Counted from the first letter of the stretch, positions 3,512-34,497 are shown. The stretch: DNA of 64,000 bases from Picochlorum sp. SENEW3 (GCA_034226945.1 CP120458.1:62001-126000); one strand, 5' to 3'. Translations and numbers: made by a program. The notes: generated by a model from the letters alone, not told the origin.

Positions 3512-5445
3512 AAAAACATTCTCGCGGGCCCCTTTTTTTGACGTGAGTCTCATGACACTTCAATCGACATAGCGATGTTTGGATGGAAAGGGCGGATGGA
3601 CCGCCCTTTCAGTTGGCCAGGTTTGTCCAAGCCCCATGGGCTGGGAACATGCATGTGCTGTAACATTCCTATGGTGAGACTGAAACCTTGTATGGTCCTT
3701 TGTATGGATTTCCAAGCGTTCTGGGTTTCTTTGAGAACCGTCCTAATTCACATGATCCTAGAAATTCCTTTGCACTACAGCAGTATAGACTGATCACTGG
3801 ATCAACATTGCATAAATGCAGTTGTCGACACGCCATCAAATCTCTATTTGCGGTTTGTCATTGCCTGATATCGATACAAATCTCCCAAATCCGTGAATCG
3901 GCTGAGCAGACCTGCGTTTCCATTGTTGGACTCACAACCCCCATTTGCAAAATATCTCTCAAGTAGGAGGGAAAGGCTTGCAATGTCACTGCTTTCATAT
4001 TCGATATCCTCTCATCCATGCGCCGCATCCACATTGATTTTGTTGTCTAAAATCAGAAAACCTGTCCATCTCGATGGCATGTTTGATCCTCATGATCAAA
4101 GGTCACAGTTCGAGAGAACCACATTGATTCTACTGCTATGAGGTTTGTATTGTTGCCCCTGTGCCAATAATGAGCAGCTATATGGGTCATCAATCCTCAC
4201 GTTCACAATTTCATATACATATGAGTCTTTGGCTAAGGCATCGCCCATCATGGCCACAACAGCACCTCACTGAGAGCCATAAGAAAGCAATATGGTGACA
4301 TGGAAGCATTTAGTCAACAGTAGCACAAACGAGCATGCTATGGACAGACAGAAATCTGAGGGAAGCATACTATGGTGACCAAAAAGTGCATGGTATCGCT
4401 GCGATACATTCATACCACAGGGATTGACGGAGATACTGATGCCCACCTTTATAGACTGTGGTGTAGATGACCTGAGGACCATCCGCACTTGCATACAATC
4501 CGCAGAAAATCGTACTGCTCACGGACATTACTTATAACAACTGTACATATGTTTCCATGATGCTTGGCATTGAAGTGTTGGCTGCTTGTTTTGGGGTGTA
4601 GTGGTTACTGTTCCATCTGACATGACTTGGCTGCATGAGCATTGCAGATAGCATCTGATTTGGCCTTCATGACATTTCTTCATGGAAGTGTCAGGATAAA
4701 TGACATTCAGGAGCAAATATCCACCAAAACATAGCAGATTGCTGTAGATTATGCTTCCACCCGGACGATGGAACCTGGGGCGTTAGCCTTGAGCAGTCAC
4801 AGCCTTGGCCCAAACTCAGGTGTCATGAATCGACAAATTTCGCCTATGAACATGCCAATTTGACCGGACGGTTGGACTCTCCATCTATGAATAATAGCAT
4901 CCCATCACAGGCTGATGTTGACCGGGAACATTACAATTCGCGTGTAGCACTATATGCTTCCCTTAGCTGCCCTCTGATACGCGTCAGGCATCGACAGAGA
5001 ATCGAGCAATCCATTTCTTCTGGAATATCAAAGCACTATAGGTGAATTGACAGCCAATACCCTGGCACAGATAGCAACCAGAGGTGCGCACGGACATTCG
5101 ACAGTTAATGGTTGGGCACATTTGGTCGCTTTGCGGCGGCGTCTAGCCACCCGGGCTTCCCATTCACCCCTATAATGTGCATCTTACTCTTTTCTGTTTA
5201 ATGCACTGTCCCAAGGGTACTCGGTTGACACGTATGAAAAGTGGCACGCTTTTTTCCCCGATTTTTTCACTAATTCGTCGCTCGCGAACGCCACGTCCCA
5301 AGTCACTTCTTGCATTCTCTGGTCCAGTCTTATATTACAATACTAGTCATTTTTATGTGCACAGTGTAATTTATCCTGCTGCAGGGAAGCGGGAATCGCG
5401 TTTGTGGTTACAGCTATATAACTTTCTTTCCCCCTAAAGGGCCCG
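3512..5445. repeat. ~1.9-kb dispersed repeat, copy 1; probably carries a decayed minus-strand gene
   Basis: Colinear with 34498..36438, with scattered substitutions and indels; the matching fragmentary ORFs are broken at different places in the two copies. Confidence 0.85.
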
Positions 5446-5728
5446 TAAACACAAAGGGGATATACTGTCCAAGTCATCAATCTTGTGTGGCCGACACACA
5501 TTTTGATTGGTTGAAATTTCAGCATAGCAATGAACTGAAGCAGCTTAATCTACTGTGCAATTAAATTTGAATCAAATAGTGTTTGGTGTTCAGAGACGCC
5601 ATTCGAACGAGTCACGAGCTTGCTGCGATTTTGTGGTCTATTGTATCGCGCGTTGTCGTTTATAAGTATTAATAAAGTTTGTTGAGGAATTTGGAGAGAT
5701 TTTCTTGGATTTTAGCGCTGTGAGAGGT

Positions 5729-6985
5729 ATGTCGCGTGGACATGCGCCAATGGACCCAGAGGTTGGTCGAGCTTCGAAGCGACTTTGCAGCGCATTCGAT
5801 GCTGTCTTGGAGCAAAACGCGCGCGATACAGCATCTATAAATCAACCAAATTCTGGTGTGAAAAGGTGGACGACGCGCGATTGGTGCCACATCTATAAAG
5901 CCGGCACCGAAAACCCTGAACAGCAGTATGAGATGCTCCACAATGGCGCTCTGGATGCCAAGGAGATGTGCCCAGAGCTCAGCAACAAGCTCCTTGGGCA
6001 GCTGCTGTTCGACTACAAGTCTACGTTTGACAAGCTGGCGCGAGCAGATGCCAGAGTGGCCTCTTTGGAGCAGGCCCAAGAGGAGGCTGCAAACAAGATG
6101 CAGCAGGTTGAGGAGGGCAAAGGGGTGGTGCAGAACTACTTGGATAATTTGGAGGTGATCATGGAAGATATACAGATGGTTTCTACAATATTTGGCAAGT
6201 TCAGTGTCGATTTCAGCGAGGCTGCTGGTACATTGGCTGCTCTGCCATTCATGAGGGATGACAGTGATGGGGTATCCCCAGCACCCCACCAGCAGGTGAC
6301 GCCTGCAACGCCCGCTGCCGGTGAGGAGTGCTTGCTAGAAATGGAGGAAATCAATAATTCAATAGAACTGGGCGTTGCGAAGAGGTTCATTGGGGGCAGT
6401 GGAGATGCTTGTGCCACCCTGATCTCTGTGACAGTTCCAGATGGAACACAAGACCAAAAGGGCAATCCCATACAAAGCGGGATGTACTACCTGAAGAAGG
6501 AACTGATTGAGATTCTTAATCGCCTTCTCCCGAGCTGGAACAAGAAGCGGGACACCAACTCGCTGGTGAGGAGGCCAAGCCTAGACTTCAACCTGCACAG
6601 GAGCGATGTGGAGCATGCAACATGGGCATTGAGTGATGCCAGCCAGAGCGAGGAGGAGTGGTTGCTCGATCACAAAAGATATGCATGCCAAAATGCATCG
6701 AAAGGTGTGTCTTTCGTGTCGGTATCAAACCTTGATGACATCATTAGCACCCTGAAGGGGCAACTCAGGAAGAAAGGCAAAGATGCAGCTGTTGTGACAT
6801 CTCATGAACAGGCGCTGGATACACTATTGTCTCATCTACAAACTATTAATACCTATCAAGAGGAAGAAGCGTTGAATATCGACATGCCGCCTGAGCAGCT
6901 GTGCAAGGTGAGGATGGACAGTAAGTTGCATAGTTTGGATCACTTGCAGCAGTGCAACATTGTTGGCTTTGCACATGCGTTGTGA
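5729..6985 (+). CDS. Hypothetical coiled-coil protein (~420 aa), probable transposon accessory gene
   Basis: Long ORF with a heptad-like stretch (ARVASLEQAQEEAANKMQQVEE). A decayed inverted paralog of its 3' end is at 14213..14550. Possible intron from ~6908. Confidence 0.6.
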   Translation: MSRGHAPMDPEVGRASKRLCSAFDAVLEQNARDTASINQPNSGVKRWTTRDWCHIYKAGTENPEQQYEMLHNGALDAKEMCPELSNKLLGQLLFDYKSTFDKLARADARVASLEQAQEEAANKMQQVEEGKGVVQNYLDNLEVIMEDIQMVSTIFGKFSVDFSEAAGTLAALPFMRDDSDGVSPAPHQQVTPATPAAGEECLLEMEEINNSIELGVAKRFIGGSGDACATLISVTVPDGTQDQKGNPIQSGMYYLKKELIEILNRLLPSWNKKRDTNSLVRRPSLDFNLHRSDVEHATWALSDASQSEEEWLLDHKRYACQNASKGVSFVSVSNLDDIISTLKGQLRKKGKDAAVVTSHEQALDTLLSHLQTINTYQEEEALNIDMPPEQLCKVRMDSKLHSLDHLQQCNIVGFAHAL

Positions 6986-8259
6986 CCATTCTCGCCACAA
7001 GGCTGGAAAATATATATCATATGTGTGTGGTAATATATTGGAATGGAGTGCAAGTCTTATTTTAATTGGAACCGCTGTATGAGCATGAATTGGGCCTTGT
7101 GCCACACATGCAGCATGATGTTTGCATGCACATGACACACTTTCTTACGGGGACGGCAGCACTGCCCTCTCCGCAGCATTCATTTGGCTTTTATACGCAT
7201 CAATATATATTATACTACCGTAATCACTTTGTATTTGCGTCCATAAGGCGGCCATCCTGGTCCTGAAAGTTGGCAGCCTTCATTGAAGTCCTGTGATGGG
7301 AGAGGGAGAGCCTGCCTGGCCATCCCTCTCTTCCACGGGGTTGCTCTGAAATTGACGTTCGTCTCCCATTGAACAGGAAAAACGCGTTTGATGGGAGACC
7401 AACGTCAATCTCCTGTGCCAGATAGGGTATTTTTCCTCATGCCAATCAAATATGATGACAGACCGGCTCCTCTGGCGCGGGTTTTCATCCGCCTAGGCTC
7501 TGAACATCGACATGACCTACATAAAATCGCACCATGCATATACCCTATATCCTGGGGACTCGCCATATGCCCTACACCGGAGTTTACCCGAGCTTGCTGC
7601 AGACAGGGAATTCAAATGCCAGATCGAAAAGTCGGGTCGCCACCCAGGCCTCTATCATATGCTAGCAGGGTGGATTCAATACTTTATCCAAATATATCAC
7701 TGACCATTATTTGCGACGCAGATTATGTCGCGAGCTCCGTATCGGCCGTGCTCCGCGCAACGACCTGCTCGAAATTTGAATTCCTTGCCATGCGCGATTG
7801 CGCGCAGGGGATCTCAACAGTCGCGGATATCGCCTAAAACCATCAATTAAATGTGTAAAAGATACCATCGGATGCTTGAGCACATGATGCTGTGCGGTTC
7901 GTCGCCGTCCGAACCGTGTCATGTCTCCACAAGAAGGCGAGCCAGGGCGGTCTACACTCGATCGAACGCTCCATCGGCTCATAATCAAGCATATTGGAGT
8001 ATTTAAGATGCCAATATGGACGCGAGAGCGGCTCGGGGCGGAGGTCGACAAGGCTGGGTGCCATTCCTGCGGTCAAAAAAGCAGGCTTTCAGAGGGTCAT
8101 GGCGGCATCGAGCCGATTTTCAACCCCGCGTTCTGCACCGATTTGGCATCGTTACAACTCAAATAGTGAATCGGGACGTATTTGACGCATCGAAACGCGC
8201 CATGGTACGCTGTGGACGGCGGAAAACCCTGCTGAAACAGCAGGCCACTCGGCAGTCCC

Positions 8260-11008
8260 TCACTGCTGATCTGGCGCATGTACCTGCACCTGCTCCGGCC
8301 TTGGGCGCGCCATGCTGTATCGAATGAGTTTATGGTACTTTGAGATGTTCCACTGTGTCAGAAATAGGCGTAGCAGGGCGATGAATGGCCGCTGGCCCAT
8401 CCTGGAAAGAACGGGTTTGAACCTCTTCATGGCAGCATTGATTTGCTCGCACGCCTCCGTGTTCTGCGTCATGCTGGCAATGTCCTTCATCTCACTTTAT
8501 AATTTAATGGAAAAACTCCTGGCACAGGCGACGTGATTCACCCAATGAAAAGCATCCACAACGAACAGAGTAAATTTGAAAAAGTCTGGTGCCCTGTTGA
8601 GGCAGTAATCCATCAATGCGCACGCGAAATCGTACACCACGACCCTCGGAGCTTTCTTGAGATAGCAGGTGAGAAATGTGAAAGGTTCATCGCGGCCCTC
8701 GGCATTTTTAATGATGAATGAAGCATATGCAACACCGTGCTGGCACATGCACGTAAACACTCCACCTGTCCTCTTCCCTGGCTTGTGGAACGCATGCTTA
8801 CAGGACGCTTTGTCCTTCTCACTCACTTTTGAGTCTTCTTTCTGTCCATCGCATGCGTATGGGGGACGGAAACGCAGTCGAGGGAGGCGGCAACAGACGC
8901 CATTCCTGAGGAAATCCCCATTCACTGCAGAGGCCTCACATGGGTGAGGAATGTCATCTCCCAGCTCGCGCTCGCCACAGTTGATCTCGGAAATCCATCT
9001 GCTTCTTTCTATGATCTCACGTAGAAAAGAAACCCACCCAATGGGGATCACAGCTCCCTCTTGGCCCGGCGCTTGCACAATCCATAGCAAATTCTTGAGG
9101 ATGGGGCCCACTTTGTCCATGACTGCCTGTCCCACCACCCTCCCCGCCTCCAGGCAGCCATCAAGGTCTATAGAAGGCTCGTAGGAGAGGTATGACGTGG
9201 TTGGGCTATCGCTCCGCAACTCCCGCAGCATGGCTTTGAATGCTTTCCTATCCACCAAAGACAGCGGCCCCTCTCTGCACGATTCGTGCACCCACGACAC
9301 AAAGTCGCCCAAATTCCACGTATCGGCGAGACTGCGTAGTCTATGGATGCCCACAAATCCCTGTGGAGTGTCCTTCGACTCGATCCAAGACTCAAAGTCC
9401 TGCACAAGCTTGATGACTTCTCGTCTCTGCCCTGCACGTCTTTCTGGTACCTCATTCGACCCTTTGCTGACATTGAAAAAGCACCGCTCGACCATCAAAT
9501 GCGGTCTTCTGATTATTTGATTGCCTTTGCGCGCCGTAAAGGACTCGGCGCTGCAAAGAGAAGCGCTGATAGACATGGAGGTGCCATCCATGATGATCAC
9601 ATCTGGGCTATCCTGGCAGATGGGGCACATCATGGCATTTGGCGGCATTGCAGCGCCACATTCTTCTCGCATACTTCTAGATATATCACTTGTATCAAAA
9701 TGAAGACAACTGGCAACGCCATACACTGCTTTGCGGAACGCATTGGCCACTAGGAAACTCTCAGTGGGCTCTATTGAATGTTTCTGATATATGCGATATC
9801 CATGCGTTCGTAGGCAGCACGTCTGCTTCGTCATCAGAGGAAGAGCAGGAAGGGTTAGGTGTGGACTCACTCTCCTCCTCTTCAGGATCCACGTCCAAGT
9901 GCAATGCCTCCCGCACCCGAGCGACGTGACGACATCGAAATGCTTTATCTGAATCGCATCGCAGACCCCTATCGCCTTGCATCCTGACGTAGCAGCCGTC
10001 CACGTAGTAGCCAGCTGTGGAGGAGTTATTATATCTGGGCTCCAGACAATTGCGAAATACGGCACAAGAGCACCGCAAATGGCCCATGGGATCAAGATCA
10101 GATTCCACCTCAACCAGCAAGTTGTGGTGGACCCTCATACTGCCCCCAGGCCCATGGCATCGAGCATCCGCGAACGCCCATTTATAATACATGTCTGACT
10201 TGACCAAAGCAGCTACTCCGGTGCCGTTGGGATCCTTGATCGCGTGACAATACCACGGCAGCGAGCCAGGTTCATGCACAAACTCCATGGCCTCCCATTC
10301 ATCCACTGGAGACTGGCAATCCCTTGTCTTGGGCGTCTTCTTTCTCCTGTTCGGACGAGACGACAAATTTGGTGGTCGCTTAAGTCTGCAACTGCTGTCA
10401 ACATGCAAAGAGGGCGGCAGAAACGGGAAGTTAGGCTTGATTTTTGGCATGCACCCATCATTGGACAAGGATTGGTAGTACTTTATCACCTTCTCCAGCA
10501 TATTTTGCATCTTCGAATCTTTCTGTGGATGACACAGCGTTAAATACTTACTGTTAGCGTGAACTAGAGCAACCACAGGCAAGGCGTGCGACTCGGCAAG
10601 CCTCTTCTGCAGCAGGGAGAAAGCAGCCTTCTTGTTGTGATATCCTTTGCTATTTCCCCTCTCGTCCTGGCTCCCTCGTCCATATATATTCTTCACCTTA
10701 ACACAATCAACCCAGAGGGGTCTATATCCCAGGATTTCAGCGACGTAGGACCTCAGACCTTGCTTCAAAAGCCTCAAGGGTATGAGCCTAAAGGCAAGCC
10801 CCAAGTTCCTGCTGGAAACCATATACATCTTGCCATCGGTCCCCAGCCACACCACCACGCCGTACAATGCCCCATAGCGTTGAATTAGAGTCTCTACGTG
10901 GTTACAGATGCGGGGAATAGCGTCCGAAAACGCCTCAGTCTCTCTCCAAAACTCCCAGACGTCCCTGTCTTTGTACAGCTCGTGTAAAGGGAGGGCCATT
11001 TCCTGCAC
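8260..11008 (-). pseudogene. KDZ (Kyakuja-Dileera-Zisupton) transposase with a SWIM-like/Cys-cluster N-terminus; frameshift near 9770 and in-frame TAA at 8497-8499
   Basis: Motifs CPIC..IIMDGTS, TGGVFTCMCQHGVAY, AEGRDEPF, VVYDFAC, VDAFHWVNH. After the stop the same frame continues as QNTEACEQIN..WN. Upstream ORF has RCSC..CRH. An acceptor-like TGTGCAG near 11003 suggests a further 5' exon. Confidence 0.85.
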
Positions 11009-11238
11009 AGAAATTGCTCAGATGCGGATAAGATAGATGAAAATATATGTTTATACCGATATAGCATCATGGGTAGAGATTGCAACAATGTGTGAGAGAG
11101 CAAAACGCACATGTATAGGACATGCTCAAACTCTCGTTCAAGGTGTAGGTCACCGTGGTGAGCGTTGCAGCACGAAGATTGCCAAAATATCTTTAAAGTG
11201 TAGATTGATTGTACATGCGAAGAATTGTGCACAGTACT

Positions 11239-11312
11239 TGTGTATCCAGTGCGAATGAGATGAGTCAAGATTGCCCCTCGATCGGGGGTTTTTAGGACCC
11301 GGGGCTAATGGG
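11239..11312. repeat. 74-bp exact direct repeat, copy 2 (candidate 5' end of the KDZ element)
   Basis: Identical to 2520..2593; ~230 bp upstream of the KDZ ORF. Confidence 0.85.
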
Positions 11313-11569
11313 TGGGGTAGGGAGCCGGGATAGGGTAGGGTATTTTGGCCGGTCGGGTATTTTAAGCGACCGGTGATCATCGGTCGTCGGTAAATCATGA
11401 TTTAGCTCGGGGTCTTAAATAAGGAGGTCTTAAATAAGACCTCTCCCAACCTCCGCCAAATTACAAAAAAATTACAAAATTAAATGAAATTTACTGTCCA
11501 ATTTAAAGAGGGATTTACTCTGAGAAAACTGTACATAAATTCAGAAAGAATTGTGAAGTGCGCTTCGAA

Positions 11570-13822
11570 ATGGGCGTCTCAAAGTATCTGGAAGAGATAA
11601 GAAAGAAAGAAACTGACTTTCTGGTCGACCTTTACGGGTGTACATTGGGAACTCCTTGTCCCTATTTACAGAACTACTTTATTCAGGAAGAGAAAAAATT
11701 GCTATTCATTGGGCAAAAATTGCATTTTTTATCACACGAATCAAAAGGTTTACCCATGAATTACAACGATTACATGCAAAAGATTTTGACACACATTAAG
11801 AGCAATGAGTTTTCAATCATCGATGGCAAAGCCGGCTCTGGCAAGACAACTTTTTCTGAAGAGATAGCAAATCTGTTCATCTCCCAAGCGGATGAGTCGG
11901 ATGGTTTGTCAATCATAATGACAGCCTCTCCACATCTTGTGGAGGAACGTCTATTCGAATATCAAGATTTTAGGGGTCAAATGTGCCTTGGACCACTCGG
12001 CTACTTACGTCACCTTGCGATCAAATGTGAGAAAAAGAGGTTTGTATTCATTTTACATGAATTCAATCGAATTCCTCATTTTATATCAGTGTTTGGACGC
12101 GCCTTTGAATCAGCATTGCAAGTACATGGGCCCAACCAGATGCATGGTGAGCTTTATCAGAACGAGATGATACAGTTCAGTGTTGTATTGCCATCAAGCG
12201 CTGAAGATTTGTCGAAACAAAGAAAAGCCTTTCCGGAAAATTTGAGAATAATTCTGACAGGTAATAAAGTTGAAGATGGCTACAGAGCCTCAATCTTTGA
12301 CGTGATGCGGGACGACGCCTTATCAAATAATAGGCTTCTAATGTCTAAGATGAAGTTTTTGTACTTAGATCACAAGCCGGCGCCCAGTAAAAAACGAGAG
12401 AGAGATGGGTCATTTGTGGAAATTCCACCAACAGAATTCGTTCCATATAATGTGATTGAAAAGAATTTTCAGTCATTGATAAAAGCAAATCTAAAATCGG
12501 AAGACTCGGACAATGTCTTGACTGCAATGGAAGAATACCTCAAATCAGCCATGAAGAATCAGACAATGAAAATGGAAAATGTCATGCCAGCAAAAAGGAT
12601 TTCTCAGTACTTCATCTATTTGCGTGACAAACAGCCAGAGATTTATCATTCAGTCATGCAAAGGTTCAAATATAAACTAGTTGGTTCGGATTATGCGTAC
12701 CCTATAATGATAATCATATCAGAATCAAAAGAATCAGAAAAAATTTCAGACTTCACTGCTGGCCGAAATTTAGCCTCATGCACAGAATTTGAGGAGTTCC
12801 GAAAAACATTGGAGGAGGAGGAGAAAAACTCTTCGTCAAATCAATCTGAGGAGGTTTCTGGGATTGATTGGTTGAAATACATTCCATGTTTTCCCACCAA
12901 CCACCCTGATCCATTATTCAAGATTGAGGAGCACTTTCAAGCCGTTGGTCCCTCAAAAGTAATTTTTACATCAGAGGAAGCAAAGGCGCAGTTTCCTGAA
13001 GAGTTAAAGAGTAGACATCTTGGAGTGAAATGGTATACTATTGGCAGGAATGACCACGGTCTCATGGAATTTCTTAAACATGCAAAAGATCCCCTCGTTC
13101 TAATCGGTTTTGAGTTGATACCAGCAAATCCATTTGCAACAAATTTGCTTTTAGATGTCCTGCTTCCCTGGTTATTTCATCATGAGAAGAAAACCATACA
13201 AAAAAGCATCAAAATCCGTCATTATATTCAATATGATTCAGGAGCACAGAAAACTGACACTGTGTTGTGCGGAGCATGCAGGCGTGGATGGCATGATTTT
13301 GTCTGCCGCGTTCTTGTCCTGGCTGAAGTGTACAAGATGGACATCAATTGTGAAAATCTAGTCTCATGCATTAAGAATGTAGAGATAGTAGATTTTCTAA
13401 TTGAAAAGATAAGACAGGCAAAAGGTATACCTACCTACCTCAATGAATTGAATGTCTTTGAGAAGGCAGAAACATGCCAAGAGTTCCAGCCAACATACCT
13501 ACTAGCAGAGGCTTTTAAAACTGAAAAAAAAATCGAACGAAATGTAGACGCCGGTTCATTGATTCAGTGTGCAATTCAATTGATTGAGATGGCCTCTATT
13601 TTTGTGTCCTTTGATCAAAAGCATAGTTCAATGTTTTCAGAAATGGTCACACAGGCTTTGTCAATTTTTGACGAGGATATCAAGGACCGCACTCAGTTTG
13701 TATTAAAGGCTTTCACCACTGAGAAGGAGAAATGCGAAACTGCAGACAAGCTCTGTATGTGGGCGGAGAGAGTTAACAAGCAAGATATGTTGCAGATTAT
13801 ACACCAAGTATCTGACATATAA
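11570..13822 (+). CDS. McrB-like AAA+ NTPase (~750 aa) with an uncharacterised C-terminal region
   Basis: Intact intronless ORF. Walker A GKAGSGKT; KKRFVFILHEFNR..SVFG (McrB-type KKYVFIIDEINR..KVFG); FPENLRIILTGN (McrB-type PENxxIIGxMN); DALSNNRL (cf. DxALRRRF). Confidence 0.75.
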   Translation: MGVSKYLEEIRKKETDFLVDLYGCTLGTPCPYLQNYFIQEEKKLLFIGQKLHFLSHESKGLPMNYNDYMQKILTHIKSNEFSIIDGKAGSGKTTFSEEIANLFISQADESDGLSIIMTASPHLVEERLFEYQDFRGQMCLGPLGYLRHLAIKCEKKRFVFILHEFNRIPHFISVFGRAFESALQVHGPNQMHGELYQNEMIQFSVVLPSSAEDLSKQRKAFPENLRIILTGNKVEDGYRASIFDVMRDDALSNNRLLMSKMKFLYLDHKPAPSKKRERDGSFVEIPPTEFVPYNVIEKNFQSLIKANLKSEDSDNVLTAMEEYLKSAMKNQTMKMENVMPAKRISQYFIYLRDKQPEIYHSVMQRFKYKLVGSDYAYPIMIIISESKESEKISDFTAGRNLASCTEFEEFRKTLEEEEKNSSSNQSEEVSGIDWLKYIPCFPTNHPDPLFKIEEHFQAVGPSKVIFTSEEAKAQFPEELKSRHLGVKWYTIGRNDHGLMEFLKHAKDPLVLIGFELIPANPFATNLLLDVLLPWLFHHEKKTIQKSIKIRHYIQYDSGAQKTDTVLCGACRRGWHDFVCRVLVLAEVYKMDINCENLVSCIKNVEIVDFLIEKIRQAKGIPTYLNELNVFEKAETCQEFQPTYLLAEAFKTEKKIERNVDAGSLIQCAIQLIEMASIFVSFDQKHSSMFSEMVTQALSIFDEDIKDRTQFVLKAFTTEKEKCETADKLCMWAERVNKQDMLQIIHQVSDI

Positions 13823-14212
13823 TAATGCCCGTCATTGTATGACGAATGTCTTGAAACATACAAATGCAAGACAGAAGATTGCATTGTCATATTCTCCTGG
13901 AGCCCTGCTTTTGTGGTGTCCAACACCGTTTTCCTATTCAACCAAAATGGGGCGTGTGGTGGTGTGCGGTGCTGGTAATTTCAACAAAACGTTGATTCCA
14001 GACAGGTCTTGTAGTGTCGTGAATGCGTCCATCGAGGGTGGTCAGAGAACCTCCTCGATGTGCACTGAGCAAGACGTGTCCCAGCATGGACATCAAACAG
14101 GTGGTCCCATGAAATGAAACTATACTAGATTTATATATATATATATCACTTGTCAACGAACAGAATGTATCTCATCAAACCCCAGATGATGATAATTCGA
14201 ATATACCCAAAT

Positions 14213-15469
14213 GATATAGATTCTTCCAGCCTTGTGGCGAGAATGGTCACAACGCATGTGGAAAGCCAACAATGTTGCACCGCTGCAACTGAACCAAACT
14301 CTCCAGCTTACTATCTATCCTCACCTTGCACAAGCTCGTCAGGCGGCATAATAGTATTCAACGCTTCTTCCTCTTGATATGTACCAACAGTTTGCATCTG
14401 AGACAACAGTGCATTCAGCTTTTGTTCATGAGATGTCACAACATCTGCATCTCAGCCTTTCTTCCTCAGTTGGCTTCAGGGTGCTAATGATGTCACCAAG
14501 GTTTGATACTGACACGAGAGGCAGTCCTTTCGATGCTTTTTGATATGCATATATGTAGCAGAGAGCTACATGCCTGCAGGAGTGGATTCTAGGAAGATTC
14601 TAGAATGAAGAGATCCCAGAGTGTTCCTCTTGTGACAAGGAGAGATCTTGAATCACTGTTCGACTGTAGATGTTCCTAGTCAGAGTCCATACCAGGGGTT
14701 TCTGCAACACCCAACGACTGTTAGCAGGTTGCCATTTCAGGAATGGCAACTCTTTCATTGTTGGCGATGGTGGAGGGAAGCTTGGCTTTCGTTGTTTCAG
14801 CAGTGGCCCTGTCCCCATCACGTTGCTGCTCTGTCCCCACTACTGACGTCCCGTAGAAACCGCATATCTCAATGTGGTCGTGCAAGCCCCCCGATGCTTC
14901 GTCCATGGCTGGCTCGTCCACTCCAACTGCAGGGGTGTGGTCAACCGCTTCTGCCTCCTCTGCAACAAAGGATCCAAGCCCAAGGATGCACTGTTGCAGG
15001 TACCGGGTCTTCTCTTGCGATGCATCGATTGCATGTTGCGATGTGATCACCAAGGGCGAAGCCATCTCGACCCCCTTTTGGGCATGGGCCCTGTTCCTGG
15101 ACAACTCACCCTCTAGCTGTGCTACTTGAGCCAGCAGGGAGGCACACCTTGACCTCTCTTCTTCGTGCATTCCCTCCATCTTTCTGCTCTTCTCATACCA
15201 CACCTTGACGTCACTGTACAGGGCAGTGATGAGCTCCGGAAAATCTCAGGAAGGCTATTTTTGGCCAAAATTTGGCCATTTTCCAGTCTTGGGTACTTCC
15301 TGGGAGGCTCCTCTTCCCGAGGTTTGAAAAATTTTCTCGGCGGTGCCGCCTTGTTTGCGCGACATGTATCATTACTCACTATATCTACATCGATTTCTTG
15401 GGTATGATCCGAATACGCGCCATCGGTGTCGTCGAACTCTTCTCTGTATGGAAACAAGGACAATCGCAC
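14213..15469 (-). pseudogene. Decayed paralog of the 5729..6985 coiled-coil gene
   Basis: 14213..14550 is a diverged reverse-complement copy of ~6680..7020. Upstream broken ORFs 15122..15469 and 14721..15203 are also coiled-coil-like. Confidence 0.55.
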
Positions 15470-15708
15470 GTGCGTTTGAGCACTATTCGAACTGTCCTGA
15501 CATTGTCAGCCAAACGATTTAAAAAGTATTCAAACATACACTGTTGCAATACCATGTACAATAATAATATACACACTACATACTATCACTCCTTTTTTTC
15601 TATGTTCCTATTACATCAGGGGCCTCAAAAAAAGAGGCCCGCGAGAATGTTTTCCTGTATCTGTTTAAAAAAGCACCGGTCGCTTAAATACCCAACCGGC
15701 CAATAATA

Positions 15709-15976
15709 TGTAAGAGCGTGCACTGAACGTCCTGAGACTAATGATTAGGTTCGGTCGGCTGACGGTCCACACCGTAGTAGAGACTGCACTATGTTGGTAT
15801 CCTGGTAACACAGGCCTTGATTATAATGTGTTACACGATGGTATATGTAGTAGAATGGTAGATAATCTTATGAGTCCTCGAGTATAGACTCTGGTTCATG
15901 GTTATATTGTGTAATCTTCTTGGTAGATTGATTCCTTAATAAGAGAGTGCCTTGAGGCATCATCTGTGCTGTTACA
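15709..15976 (-). repeat. Gypsy-1 3' LTR
   Basis: Identical to 20936..21203. Confidence 0.97.
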
Positions 15977-15988
15977 GTTCTCCCCCAT

Positions 15989-18900
15989 TTAGTTGGATAC
16001 TCGTCTCGAGTATTGTTTGAGTAACTCGTGTACTTCGTCAACTCCATATCTGAGCTTTAATTCAACTTCGGGAACTGCTTCTTCTTGTGGTGACGATTCA
16101 TGGTACTTCACCTTGTAGATCTGGTTTTGATTCTCATCAGTAATGATGTCTGTGATTTCTCTGATCTTTGGATACGTAGTATTCTTTCTCACTGGGTGAT
16201 CATATCTCTGTAACCACTCCACATTGACAGTAGGGTGCATCTTCTTGACGTATTTATATTCGTCTTTCAATTCAATACTTTCCCAATTCAATCTTACTGC
16301 GTTAGAGCCAATCAACTCTGTAACAACTACAGGGCCAATGTATCTGGAAAACAGCTTTGCTTGCCCTGGTCCCAAGCGTTGTCTAAAGTTCTTTGTACTC
16401 ACATATACTTTATCTCCGACTTGAATATCATGGTCTCTTCTTCGAGCTCCAATGACTTCTTTTTGTCTTCGCTGAGCTTCTTCCAAATGTGCTTGCGCCA
16501 TTTGTATAGCTGATTGAATCCTCAATAATATTTCATTCACATCCTCTCTGTCTGATACCATTAATTGTGATGCGTTTGCAAATGGGTATACTGGATGTCT
16601 TCCATAATTCAAGAAGAATGGTGTAGTCTGAGTACTGGTACTCACTGCACTGTTCAATGCAAATTCCACCAATGGTAAGTATTTCTCCCAATCCTGAATA
16701 TTGTTCGCACAGTATGCTCTCAACATATCAATGATACTTCTGTTTGCTCTCTCAGTCTGTCCATCTGATTGTGGATGAAAGGCTGTAGTATGAGACAACT
16801 TTGTCCCAAACACGTCCATCATTGCATGATAGAATTCTCCAGTAAATGTAGATGCTCGATCAGTTATGATCCTTTTCGGCATTCCATGTAACTTGAATAT
16901 CGTATCGATAAACGCTTCTACTATTCTTTTAGTAGATAATCCCTCTTTCTGTATAGGTACTGTCCTGACCATCTTTGATAATCTGTCAACAAAAACCAGA
17001 ATGCTGTCATGCTTCGTTTCCTCATTCTTAGGAAATCCTGAAACCAAATCCATAGTAATTTCTTCCCATCTGTACTTTGGTGTGGGTAATGGTTGAGCCT
17101 TGCCATAAGGCTTCTGGTTAATATTCTTCGATTTACTGCATACTTCACAGTGTCGTACCACATCCTCAACGTCCTGTCTCATATTTGTCCAATAAAAGAA
17201 TGTTTGCATGGCTTGCAATAGCCTGTCTCTTCCAATATGTCCAAAAGCGTTATGTATTTCTGTAATTAACTCAGTCCTCAACTGCGATGTATTCTGTGAT
17301 ACTGCCAATATGACCTGAGGAAGCTTATTAGGCTGCACGATTCTGAGTAATCCATGTTCAAAGATGACTTGATCAGGGTCAATCTTATCATGTTGCTCCA
17401 GAACTCTGCTCCTAAAATCTCCATTCTTAGTCAATACATATTCTCGCAAATATTTTGTCCATGCTTGATCATCATACGTCGGCGTGACTTGACTTGCCAC
17501 GTTCTGCAATATGAAAGGAACGGCATTTGGATCTTCCAATGACACTCCAATACTGTGGCATAGTTCTGTTCTATACCAATCTGGTTCCATATCTTCAGCA
17601 AATTCTTGTTTGTCCATAATGTGCATAATTGTCACATCGATAAGCTTTCCATTTTCGAAAGTTTGTAAGGTATTCACTCTCTCCCCCATTCTAGAAAGAG
17701 CGTCCGCGACTCTGTTCTGTTTACCAGTAATGTAGGAAATAACCAAGCCTTGCCCATACTCAGCTAGTACTTCCAACCAACCCAGTTCTTTTCTACCAGG
17801 TGTCTTCAAGGTTCTCAAATGAGTAACTGCGCGGTTATCTGTATATAAAGTTACTCCACCTTTAGCTCCAAGTAAGTAATGTCGCCATTCTCGTAGCGCT
17901 GCGACCAATGCCAAAATTTCCTTTTCAAACACTTGATACTTTCGCTGTGTGTCTCCAAATTTCTTTGATAAGAACTCAATAGGCTGTAAACCTTTTCCAA
18001 AATCTTGCATAAGCACTGCTCCTAGTGCAACATCTGATGCATCTGTGTGCACCACATACAGCAATTTCGGATCTGCAATCCTCAATGTTGGTGCTGAAGT
18101 CAGCTTCAACTTGATGTTCTGAAATTCTCGATCACATTCGTCCGTCCAGACAAATGGTACGTCATCTTTAAGCAATTCTGACAAGTGACAAACTTGAGCG
18201 GAGTAATCCCTGATGAAACGACGATAGTAATTCGCCAATCCCAGAAATGATCGTAATGTAGGGATATTATGAGGCACTGGAAAGTTCTGTACAGCTTCTA
18301 TCTTCTTTGGGTTTACCCTGATACCGTCCGCTGTAACTATTTGTCCTAAGAATAACACTTCATCCTGAAAGAATGAGCACTTCTTCTCTTGCAAATACAA
18401 TTCATGTTCCTTCAATGTTTGGAAAATCCGATCCAGATGCTCTTTATGCTCTTTCCTTGTACGCGAAAATACTAATATATCGTCCAAATAAACGACAACA
18501 AATCCAGCGTCAATATGCTTACGTAGTATACTGTTCATATTCCGTTGAAATGCAGATGGTGCGTTTGTCAAACCAAACGGCAATACCTTCCATTGATAAC
18601 TTCCATCTGGCGTTCTGAAACTTGTCTTGTGTACGTCCTTGTCCTTAATTCTGAATTGCCAATAACCTGATGCTAGATCCAAGGACGAGAAGTATTTGGC
18701 TCCTCGTAGCCTCTTCAATAATGCCTGTATGTTCGGCAAGGGAAATTTGTCTTCCACTGTAATCTTGTTTAATGCTCGATAATCCACACACATGCGTAAT
18801 GATCCGTCTTTCTTCTTCACAAATAATACTTGGCTTCCATAAGGTGACTTTGAAGGTTCTATTAAACCTCTCTTCAATAATTCCTTGACTTCGTGATCCA

Positions 18901-19834
18901 ACTGGTCTTGTTCTTTAGGTGCCAGCAACCTCATTCTTGCACACGGGATCTTTGATCCTTCTTCCGTTCGTATTTCGACATCATATTTACCTCTGTATTT
19001 GGGTAGAGTCGTAGGTGTGCCATTAATAAAGAGACTCTGATATTTTCTCTTCAGGTCTTCCATTTCTCTCGCGACGTATCTGGTAGACGTCAATGTTTCT
19101 TCTGTTGCTGCTTCTTGCACAACACATAGATAGACTTCATCTTCTTTCTCATTCAGCCAATTCTCATATCCAGTTTCGATCTGTTCCATTGTAATCAGGT
19201 TGTTCAGGAATCCGTCGTGTGAGATATTCCGATCTCCAATTTGTATAACTCTGGCTTCTGGTTCGCCTTTCTTGTTCATTTTAGTATAACTCACTTCTGA
19301 GGGACTCACAACTTTCTCTTCACCTTGCTTGCATAACCAATCATAACCCAGGATAACATCATAGCTTTGCAAGTCAATAACCAACAACGATAACATCTCT
19401 CGCACATGCGGTGTGCCTCCATTTTTCCTGGCCTTTTGCTGCACCGTAGGTAACATAATTTCCACTGTAGCTTCCTGATTAACGGGTTCTTCTCCATGAA
19501 TACTAATAATCTTTGACGAACGTCGACTTTCCTTGACAACCAAATCAAGCAAATCCACCAGTCCTTTTGATATAAAGCTGCGACTTGCTCCTGTATCCAC
19601 TAAGATTCGGACGTCTGTTCCGTTAATCTTGCCCATAACAATTGGTAAATGACCTTGTTTTACTTGCTTTGCAGATGTGTTTTCGATTAACCTGTGTACC
19701 GCTTCATGATCTAACGCGTTGATAACTTCTTGCCAATCAAATTCCTCACCAGCTTGTTTCTGGGGACTCTGAGGTGTGTCATCACCTACTGGCTCATGGC
19801 AGAGGTCCCTTCGTCGTTTTCCTGATCCTCGATG
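15989..19834 (-). CDS. pol: Gypsy-1 Pol (protease, RT, RNase H, integrase, degenerate chromodomain-like tail)
   Basis: LVDTGAS, YLDD, TDAS, HHCC (HNAFGH..CEVC), D-D-E, RYIGP. The frame is open from 19834 and overlaps the end of gag in the -1 frame. Confidence 0.95.
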   Translation of the reverse strand, partial: HRGSGKRRRDLCHEPVGDDTPQSPQKQAGEEFDWQEVINALDHEAVHRLIENTSAKQVKQGHLPIVMGKINGTDVRILVDTGASRSFISKGLVDLLDLVVKESRRSSKIISIHGEEPVNQEATVEIMLPTVQQKARKNGGTPHVREMLSLLVIDLQSYDVILGYDWLCKQGEEKVVSPSEVSYTKMNKKGEPEARVIQIGDRNISHDGFLNNLITMEQIETGYENWLNEKEDEVYLCVVQEAATEETLTSTRYVAREMEDLKRKYQSLFINGTPTTLPKYRGKYDVEIRTEEGSKIPCARMRLLAPKEQDQLDHEVKELLKRGLIEPSKSPYGSQVLFVKKKDGSLRMCVDYRALNKITVEDKFPLPNIQALLKRLRGAKYFSSLDLASGYWQFRIKDKDVHKTSFRTPDGSYQWKVLPFGLTNAPSAFQRNMNSILRKHIDAGFVVVYLDDILVFSRTRKEHKEHLDRIFQTLKEHELYLQEKKCSFFQDEVLFLGQIVTADGIRVNPKKIEAVQNFPVPHNIPTLRSFLGLANYYRRFIRDYSAQVCHLSELLKDDVPFVWTDECDREFQNIKLKLTSAPTLRIADPKLLYVVHTDASDVALGAVLMQDFGKGLQPIEFLSKKFGDTQRKYQVFEKEILALVAALREWRHYLLGAKGGVTLYTDNRAVTHLRTLKTPGRKELGWLEVLAEYGQGLVISYITGKQNRVADALSRMGERVNTLQTFENGKLIDVTIMHIMDKQEFAEDMEPDWYRTELCHSIGVSLEDPNAVPFILQNVASQVTPTYDDQAWTKYLREYVLTKNGDFRSRVLEQHDKIDPDQVIFEHGLLRIVQPNKLPQVILAVSQNTSQLRTELITEIHNAFGHIGRDRLLQAMQTFFYWTNMRQDVEDVVRHCEVCSKSKNINQKPYGKAQPLPTPKYRWEEITMDLVSGFPKNEETKHDSILVFVDRLSKMVRTVPIQKEGLSTKRIVEAFIDTIFKLHGMPKRIITDRASTFTGEFYHAMMDVFGTKLSHTTAFHPQSDGQTERANRSIIDMLRAYCANNIQDWEKYLPLVEFALNSAVSTSTQTTPFFLNYGRHPVYPFANASQLMVSDREDVNEILLRIQSAIQMAQAHLEEAQRRQKEVIGARRRDHDIQVGDKVYVSTKNFRQRLGPGQAKLFSRYIGPVVVTELIGSNAVRLNWESIELKDEYKYVKKMHPTVNVEWLQRYDHPVRKNTTYPKIREITDIITDENQNQIYKVKYHESSPQEEAVPEVELKLRYGVDEVHELLKQYSRRVSN

Positions 19835-20802
19835 TTATTAAATCGGTGATTGTTACCTTTCTTCTTCTGATGATATTCTTCTTCGTTATCATCATGCTTG
19901 TTGTTGTTGTTCTTATTCTGATGATGAGGCTTTCCTTTCCATTTTCCTTTTCCTTTAAATCCATTCCGATTTCCTTGGTTATATCCATATTGATTATTGC
20001 GATTACCTTGATTAGAGTACCGCATAAGGTTGACTTGTTCGTTCGGACCTTGCGACCTTCCTTCTAAGGAGATGTGACTGTCCACTTCCCCAATCCTTGA
20101 TAGTAAATATTGCCTTAATTCCTGGTACATCTGTTCTGGTGTACTCGCAGAGAAGTCATAATTACGCTTCTGAAAGAATTTTCCAACATGCGGGTAAACC
20201 TTTCCATACAGCTTTGGTGTGAAAACTCCCAAATGCTTCTGTCCAATGATAGCTGAGCCACAATATCTAACCACACGGTCGTATGTTTGTTCGAACCGAT
20301 GGTAGAATGCTACAATTCCTTCATTAGCACCTTGTTTCATTGCTGAGTACTGTTGATACAGCATTGCGGCATAGCCAACCCCCATTTGGTCTCTGAGAAA
20401 TATCTCCTTGGCTTCTTCCCAAGTTACAAAGGATCCTGAATCCGTCCTGAGTAGCATACCAATCCGTGGAGGAACAGCATTAAGGAATAATTGCGTATAA
20501 ACCGTTTGAGTAGTCATTTCCTGTGGAAGTATGAATATTTGTGCTGCCAACAGATGTTCTACAGACAATAGCCATTCTGCCTGAGAGGTATGTGCTGGTT
20601 GTTTTTCCCAACGATATTCTCGAGTCAAAGTTGCTGCCAGTTCCTTATATTTAAAGGTCAATGCTGCCTGCTGTGAGGTCAGTGAGGATATTCCACCCAC
20701 TGGCACTGAGGGCTCTGAACCATTTTCCGAGTGAAAATCAGCGAATTCTTCACCATTTCCTTCTTCTTCTGCGCGCCTTCGCGCTGCTCTTGTTGTAGCC
20801 AT
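19786..20802 (-). CDS. gag: Gypsy-1 Gag
   Basis: 338-aa ORF upstream of pol; MKQGANEGIVAFYHRF retrotransposon gag motif; basic, Asn-rich C-terminus. Confidence 0.88.
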   Translation of the reverse strand: MATTRAARRRAEEEGNGEEFADFHSENGSEPSVPVGGISSLTSQQAALTFKYKELAATLTREYRWEKQPAHTSQAEWLLSVEHLLAAQIFILPQEMTTQTVYTQLFLNAVPPRIGMLLRTDSGSFVTWEEAKEIFLRDQMGVGYAAMLYQQYSAMKQGANEGIVAFYHRFEQTYDRVVRYCGSAIIGQKHLGVFTPKLYGKVYPHVGKFFQKRNYDFSASTPEQMYQELRQYLLSRIGEVDSHISLEGRSQGPNEQVNLMRYSNQGNRNNQYGYNQGNRNGFKGKGKWKGKPHHQNKNNNNKHDDNEEEYHQKKKGNNHRFNNIEDQENDEGTSAMSQ

Positions 20803-20935
20803 GTCAATTATTGCTGAGGTCTTGATGCAAAGAGGAGCTACCGCACTGTCCCAGTCCGCGTCACGTCAATACCGTGAGATCTCGATTCCTCACGCCAAAT
20901 CCACGGGATTTATACGAAATAGAGCTGAAACCACT

Positions 20936-21203
20936 TGTAAGAGCGTGCACTGAACGTCCTGAGACTAATGATTAGGTTCGGTCGGCTGACGGTCCACACC
21001 GTAGTAGAGACTGCACTATGTTGGTATCCTGGTAACACAGGCCTTGATTATAATGTGTTACACGATGGTATATGTAGTAGAATGGTAGATAATCTTATGA
21101 GTCCTCGAGTATAGACTCTGGTTCATGGTTATATTGTGTAATCTTCTTGGTAGATTGATTCCTTAATAAGAGAGTGCCTTGAGGCATCATCTGTGCTGTT
21201 ACA
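20936..21203 (-). repeat. Gypsy-1 5' LTR
   Basis: Identical to 15709..15976. Confidence 0.97.
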
Positions 21204-21497
21204 TAATAATAATCCCTAATCCCCCTGCGCAGGGCATGCCCGGTCCCCCGACCATTTGACGGTAAACCACTAGACCTTTTCAGGGGGTCTTAGATAATAG
21301 AAAAGAATCTGGATCTCTAGCTAGAGAAGATCTGTGGGGATTTCCCTGAGCCTGTAAACTATACCGTAGTGACGAAAAATATAGTTTCGATAAGTAAAAA
21401 AATCCAGAAGGTCGGATATTAATTCGATAATAATTAACTCATTTAATAATAGCAACAAATTGGTAAGTGGTTGACGCTAAGGCCCGCTACCGCTAAC

Positions 21498-33300: not shown

Positions 33301-33528
33301 TGTTAGCTATTCATTTGCAATAGCTTGAGCTCAGACTGCTTGGGCAGGAACTCAATGATATAGGTTCAGAACACGTGTGTGCGTTCTATCACTTTAGATG
33401 TTAGTACAAGTTACAATAGTTACTTGCTTATATATCTTCGTTGACTGTTATTGTCGTCGCAATGCTTATATACCTTGGCAACCATCATGAGTAAATGGCT
33501 GTTCTAATTTAGATGATTTAAGACGTAA

Positions 33529-34313
33529 GGGCGGATCAACTCGATTGTGGGTTTTCTATTAGTGACTTCCAAAAAATCCTATGGGGGAGCGGGGCGTCTT
33601 TTAATAATTGATAATTTGATAAAGGTGCCAATCTGGCATCCAATCGCCTCTTAAAACCTCTGAATCAATGCGTATGCATATCCTAGTGCACAAACATAAC
33701 AAACATGGTCGCTTGGCTGATCCTGTGTGGAGGAATCTTGCCTGGATCACTGTCCATAACATGTCCTCTGTACGAGCCTTGTGCCCCAAAGCCCCGGCGA
33801 ATTTTGCGAGGTTCATCATCCCCAAATACTCTCATGATACATCAAGATAGACAGCATCTGCATTTGGCATTCGATTTCTCGCCAGATACGAGAGAGATGT
33901 CGACACAGTGCAAAATTCAAGCATCCTCTGACCATGTCCTTTCCATTCAATGTGATTTCAGCTGTTTCCTTCGCCTCAAACCCAATTTGTTGGTTCAATA
34001 TCTCAAAAAGGCGTCCAATATGTTTTATGCTTGGAATATCCTTGGAAATGGACCCACTTCGGGTTGTCTCTGTGACAGATCTGAAGCTGAGGTGCAGATC
34101 CAGGCTCTGCCGTATTCTATCATTATTGAGGCTTGCCCCGGGTACCTAATGACATTTGTCGGCGTGTAGGATGTTTGAATGCATCGCAAGGGTTGGTTAA
34201 AGCCCACGTAGAGTGGATTTGGCTCAAATTATCACTTTACAAAATCAGGTCCAATTCTGAGAAAATCCTATGGGCGGGGCTAATAGAAAACCCACAATCG
34301 AGTTGATCCGCCC
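33529..34313. mobile_element. PIF/Harbinger (Tourist-like) non-autonomous element, 785 bp
   Basis: Perfect 34-bp TIR GGGCGGATCAACTCGATTGTGGGTTTTCTATTAG; TAA TSD (33526..33528, 34314..34316); removing it restores the LTR end AGACGTAACA. Confidence 0.93.
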
Positions 34314-34497
34314 TAACATTCTTCCCTAACTTCAAATGCAAACGTCCACGCTTTGCTAAAGACAATGAGAAGTGACAATCCACAGGAAAAGAAAACCTTG
34401 TTGGAAAAAGAAGACCATATGGATGTCTGGAATGAATTTTTAATTGCTGTGCATTCTTCCTATGCAACAGAGAATGATGTCCACACTCATTCAAAAC

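Follow-up and report, generated by a model that had tools for sequence, protein, structure and literature searches.

A transcribed McrB-like AAA+ gene of Picochlorum sp. SENEW3 with a variant active site, probably a member of an old algal family

Introduction

Why should a eukaryotic genome hold an intact gene for a protein that resembles McrB, and why should this gene lie between inverted repeats and close to a transposase? The question is raised by a stretch of 64,000 nucleotides from Picochlorum sp. SENEW3 (GCA_034226945.1 CP120458.1:62001-126000), which is referred to here as the window and in which all positions are counted from the first letter. An earlier reading, made from the sequence alone, described the gene at 11570-13822 as an intact, intronless McrB-like AAA+ gene that stands between inverted repeats and between two broken transposases, and proposed that it is a prokaryote- or virus-derived gene carried as cargo of a transposable element, possibly with changed or absent hydrolysis. 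Our analysis indicates that it is probably a single-copy, transcribed nuclear gene of Picochlorum, which encodes a nucleoside triphosphatase (NTPase) of the McrB clade with a conserved variant of the active site, belongs to an old algal family, and is not carried by a Kyakuja-Dileera-Zisupton (KDZ) transposon.

McrB is GTP-specific, and its hydrolysis is stimulated by its partner within a hexamer. The partner, McrC, consists of a DUF2357 domain and a PD-(D/E)xK nuclease and is encoded alongside McrB. To our knowledge, what is understood of McrB-type AAA+ GTPases comes almost entirely from the motor of the bacterial McrBC restriction system.

Results

The gene was found as a single frame on the + strand that can be divided into an NTPase module and a C-terminal region, as follows:

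11570..13822, + strand: complete coding sequence of the McrB-like AAA+ protein P0001, 750 amino acids plus stop; an open frame that is covered by contigs without a joint
11570..12679, + strand: N-terminal extension, AAA+ alpha/beta core and helical lid (residues 1-370), delimited with AlphaFold2, VIA-align and hhalign
12680..13819, + strand: C-terminal region (residues 371-750) with no assigned fold; an alpha/beta module at 372-500 followed by a helical tail

The stop-to-stop frame begins at 11507, has its first ATG at 11570, and ends at 13822. The G+C content of the gene is 39 %, at which about 6 % of random codons are stops, and a chance frame of 750 codons is therefore excluded. In addition, P0001 is collinear with a relative of 743 amino acids (P0003) over residues 13-493. 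The description of the frame as intact was confirmed, as its 750 codons contain no internal stop and no splice joint. That it is intronless is likewise true, but this is not unusual for the region, because the host kinase, acyl-CoA dehydrogenase, and methylase genes in the window are also single open reading frames (ORFs).

The top database match was PSENEW3n2_00000623, a hypothetical protein of 485 amino acids from Picochlorum sp. SENEW3 that equals residues 261-750 of P0001 except for a 5-residue gap. This public model spans 12350-13822 and starts at Met261, and its length is 485 amino acids in the record and 490 in the value implied by the published expression table. As the model begins at Met261, the whole NTPase domain was missed, and the family is annotated only as "hypothetical protein". 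The annotated protein is a single sequence that is found on two contigs. Rfam and tRNA scans of the window gave no matches.

To place P0001, an exhaustive phmmer search was made of 1.84 billion representative proteins, which gave 28 relatives, 24 of them with E <= 1e-10; residues ~16-265 were common to all. A profile of these 29 sequences (A2) was then searched against all PDB sequences. The first match was E. coli McrB (6hz4_A, E 3.1e-7), whose alignment begins ahead of Walker A and extends to the sensor-1 strand, while the next matches, NLRC4 and NAIP, covered the P-loop only. The comparison of the family with E. coli K-12 McrB by hhalign resulted in a probability of 96.6 % (E 6e-10) over 146 columns, with an identity of ~25 %. 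The AlphaFold2 model of P0001, which was built with A2, had a mean predicted local distance difference test score (pLDDT) of 68, with values of 84-95 over residues 20-180. In the Foldseek search of this model against the PDB, ranks 1-5 were all McrB (E 3e-6 to 2e-5), ahead of dynein (3e-5). In VIA-align superpositions, E. coli McrB reached Z values of 16.2 (241 residues, root-mean-square deviation 5.5, model residues 30-361) and 14.9, ahead of T. gammatolerans McrB (12.7), NorQ (11.6), and dynein (11.5). The protein-language-model neighbors of residues 1-370 were all AAA_5 clusters (score 0.94).

Because the PDB profile search, hhalign, Foldseek, and VIA-align all favor McrB, the first ~370 residues are predicted to fold as a divergent AAA+ NTPase within the McrB clade, and the closest solved relative is McrB (E. 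coli K-12 b4346; PDB 6hz4 and 6ut6; type IV McrBC system), the best match by both profile and structure. The likeness extends to the region before the core, where an N-terminal extension aligns from residue 30 of the P0001 model onward to residue 165 of McrB onward. The McrB-like AAA+ assignment made from the sequence was thus upheld by sequence profile, profile-profile comparison, and structure. A best match to dynein, midasin, or RNF213 had been named beforehand as the result that would refute this reading, and it was not obtained. The MoxR/NorQ/CbbQ and dynein/midasin proteins do have the same helix-2-insert AAA+ fold, with Z values of 11-12 and with weak AAA_5 matches in five of the 16 relatives that were scanned with Pfam. 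However, the dynein and MoxR-type chains lie ~4-5 Z units below E. coli McrB, they have no match to the E-x-N-R motif, and no VWA partner is present.

In the Pfam search, the best match of P0001 was nSTAND3 (22.8 bits, cut-off 27.2; residues 68-114, profile positions 6-52 of 155), followed by NACHT and NB-ARC. The AAA_5 matches of the relatives (PF07728, gathering cut-off 22 bits) rose above the cut-off only for P0020, with 23.5 bits. The PADLOC and NCBIfam profiles gave weak, P-loop-level matches to the 29 members (PDC-S73 in 15 of 29, best E 1.8e-7; mad8 in 13 of 29; the McrB model in 1 of 29), and these were not used as support.

The positions of the active-site motifs in the NTPase module are:

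11825..11848, + strand: Walker A GKAGSGKT, residues 86-93; aligns to McrB GPPGVGKT
12044..12070, + strand: Walker B variant VFILHEFNR, residues 159-167 (FVFILHEFNR, 158-167); aligns to McrB IFIIDEINR
12245..12277, + strand: sensor-1 strand and signature region LRIILTGNKVED, residues 226-236; aligns to McrB VYIIGLMNTA(D)
12311..12334, + strand: DDALSNNR, residues 248-255; counterpart of McrB D343-YAL-RRR349

The order of these motifs is the same as in McrB, namely Walker A, Walker B with E-x-N-R, the sensor-1 Asn with an acidic residue, and D-x-A-L with Arg. For comparison, the McrB residues were taken from the E. coli K-12 mcrB gene (locus L002). The Walker A pattern GxxGxGK[ST] is present in P0001, and G86, G89, G91, and K92 are invariant in an alignment of 17 sequences. 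The Walker B consensus hhhhDE is not, as His163 stands at the position of the Mg-binding Asp. Among the 28 family rows that cover this site, the Asp column holds His in 22, Asn in 3, and Asp in 3, whereas the Glu that follows is found in 27 rows and the N-R pair (N166 and R167 in P0001) in all 28. The equivalences obtained from hhalign are D279 to H163, E280 to E164, N282 to N166, R283 to R167, and N333 to N232, where the McrB residue is given first. According to PMC6624300, McrB D279 binds Mg2+, E280 activates water, and N282 and R283 orient E280; N333 is sensor 1, D336 is linked to N333 and to McrC, and the sensor 2 and the arginine finger are supplied in trans by R348 and R349.

N232, the counterpart of N333, is invariant in the 17-sequence alignment. 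The signature that follows reads N-K-V-E-D in P0001, i.e., NxxxD with a Glu at +3, compared with NxxD (N333..D336) in McrB. The acidic residue after the sensor-1 Asn varies in the family; it is found at +3 or +4 in many relatives and is absent in some (e.g., NPPRGG). The Nx(xx)D signature is said in PMC11090510 to be present in all McrB GTPases, and its Asp to contact McrC. In the DDALSNNR segment, D248, A250, L251, N254, and R255 are invariant in the same alignment. When the D-x-A-L anchor is used, which is a motif alignment and not a structural superposition, McrB R347-R348-R349-F corresponds to S-N-N-R, so that R348 and R349 fall on N253 and N254, and the lone invariant arginine, R255, is placed one position past the McrB arginine finger. 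P0001 thus differs from McrB by His for Asp279, by NxxxD for NxxD, and by SNN-R for R347-R348-R349. The substitutions first read from the sequence (HEFNR for DEINR, NKVED for NTAD, and SNNR for RRR) were all found at the corresponding McrB positions. In our reading of the alignments, the active site appears to be altered yet under selection rather than decayed; a working, altered site is argued for because Glu164, N166, R167, N232, and R255 are conserved throughout the family.

The C-terminal region had been described as unassigned, and it stayed so: for these ~380 amino acids no family match was found in Pfam, and at E <= 10 residues ~371-750 gave noise only. Among the 1.84 billion representatives, the region was matched only by its own annotated model (P0002) and by P0003, whose match stops at residue 493. 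The module that P0001 and P0003 have in common (~372-500) includes the stretches DYAYPIMII, WLKYIPCFP, and IFxSxEAK. In the full-length AlphaFold2 model, residues 431-520 have pLDDT values of 70-88 and the helical tail is below 50; residues 366-750 modeled alone reached a pLDDT of 44, too poor for a fold search. Ankyrin repeats are found at the C-terminus of two of the 16 scanned relatives (P0012 and P0015). For P0001 itself, ankyrin was proposed only by a weak language-model hint (0.83-0.85), which was not confirmed, since Pfam at E <= 10 and BLASTP against P0015 gave nothing. A reading of "IFTSEEAK" as part of a PD-(D/E)xK nuclease or a TIR-like domain was rejected, as P0003 does not share the acidic residues that such a domain would need and profiles lend it no support.

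The C-terminus of P0001 is not McrC-like in hhalign (probability 0.7 % against E. coli McrC). The 65 ORFs of the window that were compared with Pfam (at least 200 amino acids window-wide and at least 110 amino acids in 1-34 kb) included no McrC, in agreement with the earlier view that no McrC-like partner is present. P0001 further differs from McrB in that it is without the N-terminal DNA-reading domain, has a C-terminal extension of 380 amino acids, and is a eukaryotic, monocistronic product with no McrC gene nearby.

The McrB-like gene is transcribed. In the published expression data (St9 of PMC12198440), the values for PSENEW3_00000623 in transcripts per million (TPM) are 494, 490, and 471 in the control, 710, 711, and 749 with atrazine, and 723, 709, and 754 with glyphosate. 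The same source lists TPM values of 2-4 for the left-neighbor locus 622 and of 236-335 for locus 642, which encodes the paralogue P0030. When the raw reads given there are divided by the raw transcripts and multiplied by 75 nt, lengths of 1473 nt for locus 623 (equal to Met261 to stop) and 1815 nt for locus 642 (equal to 604 amino acids plus stop) are obtained. Since these implied coding lengths are equal to those of the ORF and of P0030, the locus numbers match. Further evidence came from public assembled runs. In run X2, which is from the same sample as run X1, two contigs outline a possible transcript, the ends of which cannot be taken from contigs as true RNA ends:

11451..14253, + strand: possible transcript span, from X2 contigs 11451-13522 (depth 661) and 13493-14253 (depth 529), without a joint

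X2 is probably RNA, as judged from its uneven depth and from a GT..AG joint at 5081-5363; if it is, the contigs would put the NTPase half and the rest of the gene on one unspliced transcript. Runs X5 and X6 (marine metatranscriptome) contain pieces of transposable elements or tiny perfect fragments and are uninformative on the habitat and expression of the gene.

With regard to the origin of the gene, relatives with a name are Picochlorum proteins: P0030 (locus 642) of sp. SENEW3, P0005 and P0012 of sp. BPE23, and P0019 of P. renovo. The taxonomy look-up covered 20 proteins, and the remainder beyond those named are environmental sequences. The sole other name belongs to a 90 %-cluster member of P0011 on a 4.1-kb contig labeled as a Sulfitobacter metagenome-assembled genome (MAG), a label that likely results from mis-binning. 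The paralogues are 20-30 % identical and occur in three Picochlorum genomes. P0030 (604 amino acids) is encoded on the same chromosome, ~19 annotated genes further downstream. P0001 and P0003 form a pair (support 97/96) in a maximum-likelihood tree, apart from the other Picochlorum paralogues. When E. coli McrB was used as the outgroup, its branch was ~10 substitutions per site long and 10 of the 16 inner branches were left open; the tree resolved neither the base of the family nor the polarity of the Asp to His change.

Pattern-seeded scans, which distant relatives may escape, found no relatives in 2.9 million IMG/VR viral contigs, in 50,697 GenBank phage records, or in 185,579 prokaryotic species genomes (one each). 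The best viral structural matches were generic CobS/MoxR-like ATPases with E-values weaker than that of McrB. When the family alignment was used in a word-seeded homologue search, nothing came back beyond two relatives that were already known, and a metagenome scan returned one 1.6-kb locus (L001) with no usable context. The literature that was searched contains no paper that names both Picochlorum and McrB. Taken as a recent event, the prokaryotic or viral derivation proposed earlier was not supported, as the relatives are Picochlorum proteins where named, except for the one MAG contig, and the pattern-seeded viral and prokaryotic scans were empty. An ancient prokaryotic origin of the whole McrB clade is the textbook view (Iyer 2004, as quoted in PMC9877351). 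From these comparisons, P0001 appears to be a member of a small, old, alga-restricted paralogue family with a constant NTPase module and swapped C-termini.

The question of cargo was approached through copy number and through the features next to the gene:

8263..10999, - strand: KDZ transposase pseudogene, multi-copy (Pfam KDZ E 2e-4; tblastn of P0035; X1 depth 200-315)
6679..7026: left arm of a 350-nt inverted repeat, at the 3' end of ORF 5666-6985
14205..14552: the matching right arm, 86 % identical; repeats the 3' end of ORF 5666-6985 in inverted, truncated form
11341..11375: left arm of a 36-nt inverted repeat, with an 8-bp hairpin (DNA fold -8.3 kcal/mol, z -3.5)
15674..15708: the right counterpart of this 36-nt arm, 92 % identical, with a weaker hairpin (z -1.1); directly abuts a long terminal repeat (LTR) retrotransposon
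15709..21203, - strand: Ty3-type LTR retrotransposon, right neighbor (100 % identical 268-nt LTRs; target-site duplication TAATA; PR-RT-RH-INT)

The contigs of four public runs were compared with 5000-22000, and their depth is taken as indicative and not as a copy number. X1 is a DNA-like contig set of 13.3 Mb with records of up to 246 kb and a single-copy baseline of ~69. The McrB-like gene was contained in one X1 unitig (11344-13996) with 0 differences and a depth of 67.7, compared with 69.1 for the interior of the LTR element and 69.3 for the unique right flank. In contrast to this single-copy depth, the summed depth is 200-380 on the KDZ side (5000-11236), where many letters vary, and 250-418 over 14639-15772. 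No second copy of the gene was found in the 64-kb window. The G+C content at third codon positions (GC3) is 0.41 for the gene, which is inside the host range, and the KDZ sequence has a G+C content of 51-52 % and a GC3 of 0.57-0.59. The proposal that the gene is transposon cargo was therefore not borne out: its unitig is at single-copy depth while KDZ is multi-copy, there is one copy in the window, and there is one protein sequence.

The KDZ pseudogene is divergent to the McrB-like gene and lies ~570 nt upstream. It is split into two frames with an in-frame stop at 8497, and a 99 %-identical Picochlorum KDZ protein of 822 amino acids (P0035) reads on to 8263. Removal of 5 nt (10031-10035) that are absent from other KDZ copies left the two frames unmerged. 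On the right, the Ty3 element has an open pol frame of 1281 codons and a gag frame, is at single-copy depth in X1, and has the appearance of a very recent insertion or of a sole copy. Of the two transposases first read as broken, the left one is indeed broken, but the right one belongs to an intact-looking element. The same holds in part for the inverted repeats, as two pairs do enclose the gene, but the 350-nt arms are pieces of ORF 5666-6985 and not transposon ends. The 36-nt arms have a geometry like that of terminal inverted repeats around a 4.4-kb unit that holds the gene; no target-site duplication can be seen at them, and the LTR element is inserted directly against the right arm. Degenerate, mirrored TAGGG/CCCTAA-like repeats lie at 11313-11343 and 21209-21235, just outside both 36-nt arms, and the 11-kb bin is the richest in TAGGG/CCCTA words in the window (5). 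These repeats may be telomere-like relics or parts of longer element ends.

As the remaining features of the window show, the gene is part of an island of transposons that spans more than 40 kb (1-43 kb), and ordinary genes follow from 43 kb:

2-547: MULE transposase fragment
5666-6985: multi-copy ORF of 439 codons
13844..13928: piece of 85 nt from a poly(A)-tailed retroposon family (~600 nt), 22 nt past the McrB-like stop; 91 % identical to 42727-42810
24133-26856: four 808-bp units in tandem, 95-99 % identical except for the fourth (~79 %); overlapping frames of 256-295 codons with no Pfam match
33301-43028: second LTR retrotransposon, with a poly(A)-tailed retroposon of ~600 nt inserted in its 5' LTR (42327-42928)
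43048-44496, - strand: prokaryote-type N6/N4 DNA methyltransferase (Pfam N6_N4_Mtase E 2e-42), at the island border and 29 kb from the McrB-like gene

The SENEW3 nuclear genome is described in PMC11092101 as containing 4.99 % transposable elements, with DNA transposons at 0.35 % and a few localized repeat-rich regions. In a genome so poor in transposable elements, the island at 1-43 kb is one of the exceptions, and it could be one of the repeat-rich arms or a putative centromere described for Picochlorum SENEW3. Contigs of X2 and X6 place copies of the retroposon family in other genomic contexts. A 1.9-kb repeat occurs twice (3512-5443 and 34498-36437, 92 % identical) and contains GT..AG joints, with X2 skipping 281 nt (5081-5363) and X6 skipping 217 nt, which suggests a spliced, transcribed transposon gene. 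The genes beyond 43 kb encode the DNA methylase, GAPDH, a kinase, an eIF2-beta/eIF5-type factor, UGGT, acyl-CoA dehydrogenase, and CemA.

Discussion

The data raise the possibility that the gene is cargo, either of a KDZ transposon or of the 4.4-kb unit bounded by the 36-nt arms (11341-15708). Its position within a transposon island, the divergent KDZ transposase gene 570 nt away, its low G+C content, and the proper terminal-inverted-repeat geometry of the arms around it all fit such a view, and KDZ elements are reported in PMC12730594 to lie beside second genes that are thought to co-mobilize with them. The McrB-like gene is similar to these passenger genes (TET/JBP in fungi) in that it adjoins a KDZ transposase. 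It differs in that it is not co-amplified with the transposase and in that no element boundaries surround both. The KDZ sequence is 3-5 times deeper than the single-copy gene unitig, which indicates that other KDZ copies are without the gene, and its composition is far from that of the gene (G+C 51-52 % and GC3 0.57-0.59, compared with 39 % and 0.41). No terminal inverted repeats that would take in the gene were found for the KDZ unit, the 36-nt arms show no target-site duplication and, as typed, occur once in 64 kb with up to 3 mismatches, and the paralogues, at 20-30 % identity, give no sign of a recent burst. We therefore regard carriage as unlikely. Within the reading that we prefer, it is proposed that the position in the island reflects where fast-evolving, lineage-specific genes sit in a compact genome and not KDZ carriage. 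It is quite unlikely, in our estimation, that P0001 is a catalytically dead scaffold or the product of a decaying gene, in which His for Asp and Asn for Arg abolish hydrolysis and the ORF survives by chance or as a nucleotide-binding adaptor. The Mg-binding Asp and both McrB arginines are indeed replaced, the gene lies among transposable elements, and annotation pipelines overlooked its N-terminal half. Yet the substitutions are the norm in the family and are flanked by invariant catalytic residues, which argues for purifying selection on the site; a 750-codon frame in DNA of 39 % G+C is far beyond chance; and the transcript levels are high.

A recent horizontal transfer, with a bacterium, a phage, or a giant virus as the donor and a date within the genus Picochlorum or just before it, would account for the presence of a type of protein that is overwhelmingly prokaryotic. 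It would also fit with the phage and bacterial AAA_5 clusters among the language-model neighbors, the Sulfitobacter label in the P0011 cluster, and the prokaryote-type N6/N4 DNA methylase gene 29 kb off. Such a transfer is very unlikely in view of the pattern-seeded scans, which returned no relative from viral contigs, phage records, or prokaryotic species genomes, and of the viral structural matches, which were generic CobS/MoxR-like proteins and weaker than McrB. The identity to E. coli McrB is only ~25 % over 146 columns with a very long McrB branch, and the Sulfitobacter contig of only 4.1 kb is likely mis-binned. The chance that P0001 is an NTPase of the STAND/NLR type (nSTAND3/NACHT-like) and not AAA+ appears slimmer still. 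The best Pfam matches of P0001 and 13 of the 16 relatives are to nSTAND3, NACHT, or NB-ARC, NLRC4 and NAIP appear in the PDB profile search, and ankyrin repeats behind an NTPase recall the layout of NLR proteins. These matches, however, are at or below the cut-offs and cover the P-loop only (profile positions up to 52 of 155, query 79-124), whereas the McrB match spans Walker A to sensor 1 in sequence and continues through the lid in structure, and the motif after Walker B is the E-x-N-R of McrB. The likeness to STAND proteins is instead one of architecture, with an NTPase joined to a variable, sometimes ankyrin, C-terminus and with lineage-specific paralogy, which suggests a sensor-like role; the likeness in sequence is limited to the P-loop, and the core and lid of P0001 are of the AAA+ McrB type.

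The reading of P0001 as a McrB-clade NTPase encoded by a single-copy host gene remains probable rather than firm, and several observations weigh against it. P0001 has no Pfam AAA_5 match at E <= 1 and only weak P-loop matches, and three McrB hallmarks are changed or missing: the Asp of Walker B, the two arginines (RR), and a neighboring McrC. The published TPM values cover only the annotated 3' 1473 nt. The single-copy evidence consists of contig depth, a poor proxy for copy number, and of a search limited to the window. With a G+C content of 39 %, the gene is poorer in G+C than the host genes of the window (46-49 %) and near LTR retrotransposon 1 (41 %), and it lies 570 nt from a transposase and within two pairs of inverted repeats. 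Oligomerization is a prediction from the likeness to McrB.

If the preferred reading is correct, the NTPase module is expected to bind nucleotide, either GTP or ATP, and by analogy with McrB it may assemble into a ring or a switch-like oligomer. Without McrC, such an assembly could act as a slow nucleotide-gated switch or remodeler, and the C-terminal region may pick the target or partner. P0001 would then be a nucleotide-dependent oligomeric switch or remodeler with the C-terminus as its specificity part, and a role in genome defense is possible. A further idea, which is put forward as tentative and rather doubtful, is that Picochlorum and related marine eukaryotes turned the McrB motor into a McrC-less, NLR/STAND-like sensor family that guards the compact genome against viruses and transposons. 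In that case, the His-for-Asp Walker B and the single arginine would slow the module, and the C-termini, ankyrin or orphan, would be interchangeable target binders.

A eukaryotic branch of McrB-family AAA+ proteins has been described in the Navigators (NAV/UNC-53; PMC9877351, quoting Iyer et al. 2004). As described there, the Navigators are similar to P0001 in that a McrB-clade AAA+ module occurs in a eukaryotic protein, without McrC and joined to other domains. They are, however, animal proteins in which the AAA+ module is C-terminal, after a CH domain and a coiled coil. Their kinship to P0001 is judged to be remote, because no Navigator protein is among the 28 relatives from the exhaustive search. 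We know of no demonstration that Navigators hydrolyze nucleotide.

The present gene would be neither a recent cross-kingdom transfer nor transposon cargo, which makes it less surprising than it first appeared. In practical terms, the public model holds only the last 485/490 residues, so that the family is invisible in the current annotation. The algal proteins would represent a second, independent eukaryotic family of the McrB type, one that keeps the catalytic network, has a conserved His in place of the metal-binding Asp, has no McrC, and is well expressed. As such, the family may be regarded as a natural experiment on the McrB module without its activator.

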